A stretch of DNA of 64,000 nucleotides from Escherichia coli. Lineage in GTDB: Bacteria; Pseudomonadota; Gammaproteobacteria; Enterobacterales; Enterobacteriaceae. This document shows, one piece after another, positions 32,148 through 33,404 of this stretch. The notes below the pieces were generated by a model. It did no database searches, was not told where the DNA came from, and was given only the letters and a program-made list of their open reading frames with translations. How positions within the stretch are numbered: the first letter of the stretch is position 1; each line of letters starts with the position of its first letter. The stretch lies in NCBI RefSeq assembly GCF_013315695.1, contig NZ_CP054353.1. One strand, 5' to 3'. Both the position numbers and the translations under genes were made by a program.

Positions 32148-32473
32148 ATAAACGCTCCATATACAAACAATACAGCCACGAAAGAGATGAGTCATCAGAC
32201 GTTAAAAATGAAACTTATTAAGTTGTCAGAGGTCTGTATTGAGTGTTGGTTGGAGGTGGGAAGGTGTCAATTTGGCTAATTTGCTAATGCTTTCGAATTG
32301 ATAGATTAAAAATTGCATAGTTCTTATTTTATTTAAAAATGAACCATGAGTTATTGTTGCTTAATAAGAAAAATATTTCTTTCAATAAGAAAATTACCAT
32401 CATCATATTTAACAAAGAATAGCACTAATTGCTAAAAAAGAACTCTATTAAAACTCTTGGTAATGACTCCAAC

Positions 32474-32977
32474 TTATTGATAGTGTTTTATGTTCAGATA
32501 ATGCTCGATGACTTTGTCATGCAGCTCCACCGATTTTGAGAACGACAGCGACTTCCGTCCCAGCCGTGCCAGGTGCTGCCTCAGATTCAGGTTATGCCGC
32601 TCAATTCGCTGCGTATATCGCTTGCTGATTACGTGCAGCTTTCCCTTCAGGCGGGATTCATACAGCGGCCAGCCATCCGTCATCCATATCACCACGTCAA
32701 AGGGTGACAGCAGGCTCATAAGACGCCCCAGCGTCGCCATAGTGCGTTCACCGAATACGTGCGCAACAACCGTCTTCCGGAGCCTGTCATACGCGTAAAA
32801 CAGCCAGCGCTGGCGCGATTTAGCCCCGACATAGCCCCACTGTTCGTCCATTTCCGCGCAGACGATGACGTCACTGCCCGGCTGTATGCGCGAGGTTACC
32901 GACTGCGGCCTGAGTTTTTTAAGTGACGTAAAATCGTGTTGAGGCCAACGCCCATAATGCGGGCTGTTGCCCGGCAT
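32474..32977 (-). CDS. insB: IS1 InsB
   Basis: 167 aa ORF; differs from copy 1 InsB at one residue (VIEHYL versus VIGHYL). Confidence 0.9.
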
Positions 32978-33171
32978 CCAACGCCATTCATGGCCATATC
33001 AATGATTTTCTGGTGCGTACCGGGTTGAGAAGCGGTGTAAGTGAACTGCAGTTGCCATGTTTTACGGCAGTGAGAGCAGAGATAGCGCTGATGTCCGGCG
33101 GTGCTTTTGCCGTTACGCACCACCCCGTCAGTAGCTGAACAGGAGGGACAGCTGATAGAAACAGAAGCCAC
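32896..33171 (-). CDS. insA: IS1 InsA
   Basis: 91 aa ORF identical to the copy 1 InsA. Confidence 0.93.
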
Positions 33172-33404
33172 TGGAGCACCTCAAAAACACCATCATACAC
33201 TAAATCAGTAAGTTGGCAGCATCACCAAAACTCTTTTTCATTCATTTATGCCTTTAGGAATATTCGCTATAAAATAAGGGTTATGCTTAATGTTTTAAGA
33301 AAAATAGCAATTTCCCCTTGAATATAGTACTGGCGATGGAACGATGAATCTGCAAGCTGGCATTTAACAAGCCAGCTCTAAAAGAAGGGAAATAAGAATA
33401 ACTA

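Follow-up and report, generated by a model that had tools for sequence, protein, structure and literature searches.

IS1 was among the first insertion sequences ever described, and IS1A and IS1E are the consensus IS1 copies of K-12. The published description of the element comprises a length of 768 bp, the terminal repeats IRL and IRR, the genes insA and insB, and a 232 aa InsAB' protein, the production of which is under frameshift control (PMC12428005). Its insertion is accompanied by duplications of either 8 or 9 bp, and AT-rich DNA is the preferred target (PMC5009759). IS1 is also known, together with IS5, from insertions upstream of bgl, where both elements relieve silencing by H-NS (PMC9678765, PMC8836124, PMC2646131). 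Here, we describe an IS1 located between lsrK and an autotransporter gene in a 64,000-nucleotide stretch of Escherichia coli DNA (NZ_CP054353.1), which is referred to in its entirety as the window. The window contains two IS1 copies in the same orientation, both having insA/insB on the - strand, with copy 1 found at 13839-14606 and the element of interest, copy 2, at 32459-33226. Copy 2 resembles IS1A and IS1 of E. coli in its 768 bp length, imperfect 23-bp terminal repeats, A6C-linked insA/insB', 232-aa InsAB', 9-bp duplication, and AT-rich target, and it differs from them by one base (32505), which yields the substitution G223E in InsAB'. Its situation is also reminiscent of the bgl insertions (PMC9678765, PMC8836124), in that the target of IS1 is AT-rich and precedes a gene start by a few hundred bp. 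Unlike bgl, however, the downstream gene had been destroyed before IS1 came, leaving nothing to activate, and a role for H-NS at this spacer is hypothetical.

Structure and target site of IS1 copy 2

Copy 2 is a complete IS1 of the IS1A type and is identical to copy 1 at 767 of its 768 bases. A pattern search located its left inverted repeat (IRL, GGTGATGCTGCCAACTTACTGAT) at 33204-33226 on the - strand with 0 mismatches and its right inverted repeat (IRR, GGTAATGACTCCAACTTATTGAT) at 32459-32481 on the + strand, and the two match at 18 of 23 positions when compared directly. Across the window, a degenerate pattern for IS1 terminal repeats matched at four places (13839, 14606, 32459, and 33226), while shuffled sequences predict 0.00 matches. 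The ORF list and its translations place insA, which has 91 codons and a GTG start at IS1 position 56, at 32896-33171 and the insB frame, a 167-codon ORF with its stop at 32474, at 32474-32977, both on the - strand; the insA product is the transcriptional repressor and the N-terminal part of the transposase. An A6C slippery motif, AAAAAAC, is found at IS1 position 307 (32914-32920, - strand) and constitutes the programmed -1 ribosomal frameshift site, a role that has been described (PMC12428005). When translation is shifted by -1 at this motif, the result is an uninterrupted InsAB' transposase of 232 residues (32474-33171, - strand). This protein matches three Pfam domains with scores far over their cut-offs, namely Zn_ribbon_InsA (PF03811, 73.9 bits), HTH_Tnp_IS1 (PF12759, 98.4 bits), and DDE_Tnp_IS1 (PF03400, 257 bits), and it scores 245 bits against the NCBIfam equivalog NF033558 (transpos_IS1), for which the cut-off is 100. 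A consensus scan additionally revealed a promoter-like site (CTGCCA, 16-nt spacer, TATGAT; 33192-33219, - strand) that overlaps the IRL. As the insA promoter is known to lie there, we presume that this site belongs to insA.

The element is bordered by AAAACTCTT on both its left (32450-32458) and its right (33227-33235). This repeat is a genuine target-site duplication and not a chance match, because the flanks in the genomes MS 21-1 and AF3 rejoin exactly around a single AAAACTCTT. MS 21-1 lacks the IS1, and its flanks are 99.9% identical to those of the window; here, the 60 bp preceding the insertion point are directly joined in this manner to the sequence following it. Length and repeats, reading frames joined at the A6C motif, protein domains, duplication, and AT-rich target all place copy 2 in the IS1 family, and PGAP has named the copy at the same site of the genome MSB1_4I an 'IS1-like element IS1A family transposase'. 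Copy 2 is a simple, clean insertion that is structurally intact. An earlier note on this DNA had described it as such, with the same limits and a 9 bp duplication, and we found both terminal repeats of the 768 bp element as well as the duplication upon recounting.

Condition of the neighboring genes

lsrK, insA/insB of copy 2, and the autotransporter gene are all encoded on the - strand. lsrK is the autoinducer-2 kinase gene. Here, it is a pseudogene split in two ORFs (33454-35045, - strand) because a CCC run near 34315 has lost one C, and apart from this 1-bp deletion, it is identical to the intact lsrK of MS 21-1. The same lesion is common to MSB1_4I and AF3. Without LsrK, no phospho-AI-2 would be made, and the lsr operon is expected to stay repressed by LsrR. 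Just past the lsrK stop lies a terminator-like hairpin with a 12-bp stem and a U-run (33414-33449, - strand), which has a folding energy of -19.9 kcal/mol (z = -3.8, 0/200 shuffles as stable). Its loop is beyond the loop limit of the terminator scan, and it was detected by direct RNA folding. The IS1 end (33226) is past this hairpin and 227 bp from the lsrK stop codon (33454), in agreement with the earlier placement of the element about 230 bp downstream of lsrK and between its terminator and the autotransporter.

On the other side of the element, the autotransporter gene is represented by a 5' fragment of an ECSE_1600-family ESPR autotransporter, which retains 534 codons of about 1806 (30546-32147, - strand) and is cut off by an IS4. 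This IS4 (29120-30545, + strand) is 1426 bp long and is inserted inside the gene with a 13-bp duplication, CCCCTTACCGGAG, at 29107-29119 and 30546-30558. The autotransporter ORF covers profile positions 1-534 of 1806 in NCBIfam NF011422; the 3' end of the gene is gone, and what remains beyond the fragment (27172-29106) is annotated as lacking both termini. The ORF at 32147 opens with MNRIYRVIWNCTLQVF, which is the ESPR signal peptide (Pfam ESPR), and both the signal peptide and the NCBIfam profile start at 32147. The distance from IS1 (32459) to this start is 311 bp. The previously proposed figure of about 260 bp must therefore be revised, as only an unannotated upstream ATG at 32195 yields a comparable value (263 bp).

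Order of events in related genomes

In a search of 5426 complete E. coli genomes, only MSB1_4I (NZ_LR898874.1) was found to share the left IS1 junction. Its IS1, at 2589459-2590226, has the identical junction, orientation, and duplication, and over 13.9 kb around the element, the two sequences differ only at bases 25997 and 32505. Colinearity of the two extends from 24150 to 60527, a distance of 36,378 bp that contains 4 mismatches (25997, 32505, 49121, and 56112). Structurally, MSB1_4I departs from the window in two respects, as two of its IS2 copies bound an inversion of roughly 90 kb and the IS5 at 60528-61722 is missing. In a third genome, AF3 (NZ_OZ547117.1), the sequences to either side of the element match the window at 100.0%, and the span is 777 bp shorter, which corresponds to 768 + 9. 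AF3 shares with the window both the IS4-autotransporter junctions and the 1-bp deletion of lsrK, while its IS1 site is empty with one AAAACTCTT. Its flanks, of 5,994 bp and 6,558 bp, are each one base off from the window, whereas MSB1_4I is identical to the window across these same flanks and carries IS1.

The simplest reading of this pattern is a relationship of ((window, MSB1_4I), AF3), with IS1 presumably gained on the branch leading to the window and MSB1_4I after both the IS4 insertion and the lsrK frameshift. The insertion would be later than the two neighboring lesions because AF3 has both of them, yet its site is empty, an order that assumes that AF3 never had IS1 and that no precise excision occurred there. 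Overall, the comparisons show an IS1 insertion that appears to be recent and confined to the sublineage of the window strain and MSB1_4I, and they show that the copy inserted here would have been identical to the other IS1 of the window. It is very probable that copy 2 is a standard intact IS1A, which entered the AT-rich spacer by ordinary transposition after both of its neighbors were broken. In such an event, InsAB' would be made via the frameshift and bind both terminal inverted repeats, it would then join IS1 to a target cut with a 9-bp stagger, and repair of the stagger gap would create the AAAACTCTT duplication. These steps are established IS1 biology and are consistent with every feature of copy 2. 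The element is known, as is the mechanism, and the site is already present and annotated in the public genome MSB1_4I. The importance of the insertion is small, as copy 2 behaves exactly as expected of IS1. It is mainly useful as a lineage marker, which joins the window strain to MSB1_4I and sets both apart from AF3, and the locus further illustrates how, in this clade, IS elements (IS1, IS2, IS4, and IS5) remain active and genes around lsr decay. In a further instance of such decay, AF3 has lost about 2.4 kb relative to the window, extending from the lsrD 3' end through lsrG (window 39785-42145; positions 14039-14044 of the fetched AF3 locus).

Recurrence of IS1 in the lsrK-autotransporter spacer

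The GC content at the insertion site is 20-27% in 100-bp windows compared to about 45-55% in the neighboring genes, which fits the known target preference of IS1 for AT-rich DNA. The spacer is present in 4215 of the 5426 genomes and is contiguous in 4006 of those. We mapped IS1 junctions in 13 other genomes and found several events in this region that differ from copy 2 in their positions, IS1 variants, and host lineages, several of them with adjacent deletions. The EC06-type genomes carry an independent IS1A insertion with the duplication GAGTTATTG at the equivalent of window 32348-32356, which is 102 bp from the copy 2 site, and an EC06-type derivative has a deletion reaching tam. In EP91B, an independent IS1X2 insertion has an 8-bp duplication, CCCTTTTG, that overlaps the target of copy 2 with a 4-bp offset. 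The 13 mapped genomes also contain four more simple IS1 insertions inside the autotransporter gene and IS1-adjacent deletion endpoints near 32333-32334, 32393-32398, and 33330. It should be noted that IS1 had a uniform orientation in all 13 mapped loci; we rejected this as a finding, since the search joins pieces on one strand only and the uniformity is a retrieval artefact.

These recurrent events raise the question of whether the roughly 530-bp AT-rich spacer between lsrK and the autotransporter gene might be a true IS1 hotspot directed by DNA structure. The idea stems from the fact that IS1A and IS1X2, in lineages that are unrelated, have hit overlapping targets offset by 4 bp, a third independent insertion is 102 bp off, and several deletions end in the same 100-bp stretch. 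We consider such a hotspot to be unlikely. If it were real and extended beyond AT-richness, DNA bending or nucleoid-protein targeting might be the cause, and the spacer would lend itself as a natural model for studying how IS1 selects its targets.

The single-base difference at 32505

As indicated by the earlier note, the InsB of copy 2 differs from that of copy 1 by one residue. In our alignment, the two elements differ at 1 of 768 bases, with copy 2 having T and copy 1 having C at window position 32505 (+ strand). On the - strand, this changes a GGG codon to GAG and substitutes G158E in InsB, equivalent to G223E in InsAB', which converts DKVIGHY to DKVIEHY near the end of InsB. The IS1 at the identical junction of MSB1_4I carries C, which is the consensus base, and matches copy 1 of the window with 100% identity. 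Furthermore, the exact 61-mer containing T was found in only 3 of 8309 matching records (about 55,900 IS1 places), and none of the three is the junction of this lineage. The most convincing explanation for the T at 32505 is a private mutation that probably arose after insertion in the window's own lineage, because the MSB1_4I ortholog has the consensus C and the variant is very rare elsewhere.

Ten residues were tried at position 223 to compare their scores against PF03400, and Gly scored 262.5 bits, Glu 258.8 bits, and the other eight 258.3-259.4 bits. As judged by these scores, glycine is the residue preferred by the family profile, and G223E may weaken the transposase encoded by copy 2 itself. 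All of the cis elements of copy 2 are intact, and copy 2 would stay mobilizable by transposase from the many other genomic IS1 copies.

The same rarity could also be indicative of a sequencing or consensus error, in which case copy 2 would be identical to copy 1. Assemblies tend to contain consensus errors in repeated elements, and this is a lone difference between the copies that is missing in the closest genome and very rare species-wide. However, unique sequence of the window contains three more isolated positions that differ from MSB1_4I (25997, 49121, and 56112) at a similar density, and real structural differences exist as well, including the extra IS5 and the absence of the IS2-IS2 inversion. 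Therefore, genuine divergence is expected at such a level. An assembly consensus error has only an outside chance of accounting for the T at 32505 and is less likely than a private mutation.

Potential effect upon the autotransporter gene

The location of copy 2 had led to the suggestion that it could alter the promoter context of the autotransporter. Such an effect could be envisioned if IS1 parts the gene from upstream silencing DNA, similar to bgl, or if the gene receives read-through from the element. There is precedent in the activation of the H-NS-silenced bgl operon by IS insertion (PMC9678765, PMC8836124, PMC2646131), and several features of the locus are compatible with the idea: the element sits 311 bp upstream of the start codon within DNA of 20-27% GC, it is co-oriented with the autotransporter gene such that read-through is conceivable, and the 534-codon 5' fragment retains its open reading frame and signal peptide, which makes changed transcription formally possible. 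Against this, the autotransporter gene is broken by IS4 after codon 534 of about 1806 and its 3' end is gone, and these lesions are older than IS1, as AF3 has them with an empty IS1 site. Activation of the bgl type entails a functional downstream gene with raised expression, whereas this gene was already split and truncated before IS1. The autotransporter gene is likewise annotated as frameshifted in EC06 and EP91B, the two other fetched lineages having IS1 in the spacer.

The flanks of the element also contained no promoter-like site in a consensus scan of 32000-33600, where the sole match was inside the IRL, although 1 match compared to a shuffle mean of 3.1 makes the scan uninformative for the autotransporter promoter. 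An Rfam scan of the uninterrupted spacer of AF3 detected no family, with HOTAIR_2 at 15.5 bits (gathering score 60, E = 0.41) being a chance sub-threshold match; therefore, no known RNA gene is disrupted by IS1. For the yneO/ydeK autotransporter, a literature search gave no paper on the regulation of the gene. With the downstream gene inactivated prior to the IS1 insertion, copy 2 is very unlikely to have a regulatory role, by either silencer separation or read-through, and the suggested change of promoter context is effectively moot. Judging from the state of the neighboring genes only, the insertion is probably a selectively neutral passenger between two pseudogenes. In annotation, the autotransporter and lsrK should be treated as pseudogenes, and no regulatory consequence should accordingly be attached to IS1 copy 2.

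Relationship to copy 1 and other elements of the window

The earlier note had further argued from the InsB residue that the two IS1 copies are not products of a single recent duplication. This argument is not supported, as the difference appears to postdate the insertion and the MSB1_4I ortholog equals copy 1 at 100%. If the 32505 change is post-insertion, then the difference between copies 1 and 2 tells nothing about the donor or a separate origin, and neither does a one-base difference make copy 1 the donor. Searches of MSB1_4I, with up to 40 matching pieces listed per record, each returned at least 39-40 IS1 match places. With this many possible donors and one base, or one residue, separating the copies, copy 2 could have come from an IS1 other than copy 1 and inherited its variant at transposition, giving the two copies separate histories, but this is scarcely plausible given the consensus base at the identical MSB1_4I junction, the three variant-bearing records, none of which is at the junction of this lineage, and a divergence of 1 in 768 bp that is compatible with the background of 4 in 36.4 kb relative to MSB1_4I. 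It is conceivable in principle that the variant was already there at insertion and that gene conversion later removed it from MSB1_4I.

Copy 1 itself (13839-14606) has no target duplication, as its left flank is ...GGCGTGCG and its right flank is TTCGTGATG. It sits between a uidB without its 3' end and a uidC without its 5' end. The truncated neighbors and the lack of a duplication therefore indicate an IS1-adjacent deletion. The uidA gene beside it is annotated as frameshifted in MSB1_4I. A second IS4 (20005-21430, 1426 bp) is found between a truncated fimbrial gene and fumB, and, as no duplication flanks this copy either, it may have undergone a rearrangement or deletion. The IS5 at 60528-61722 is 1195 bp long and has the duplication TTAG (60524-61726). 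As it is found in the window and is absent from MSB1_4I, there has been IS movement since the divergence of the two. Lastly, an IS2 starts at 24150, and the window to the left of IS2 is not colinear with MSB1_4I. MSB1_4I has two inverted IS2 copies, next to each of which lie one half of a gene for a fimbrial usher and one half of a gene for an exonuclease, an arrangement equivalent to a roughly 90-kb IS2-IS2 inversion relative to the window.
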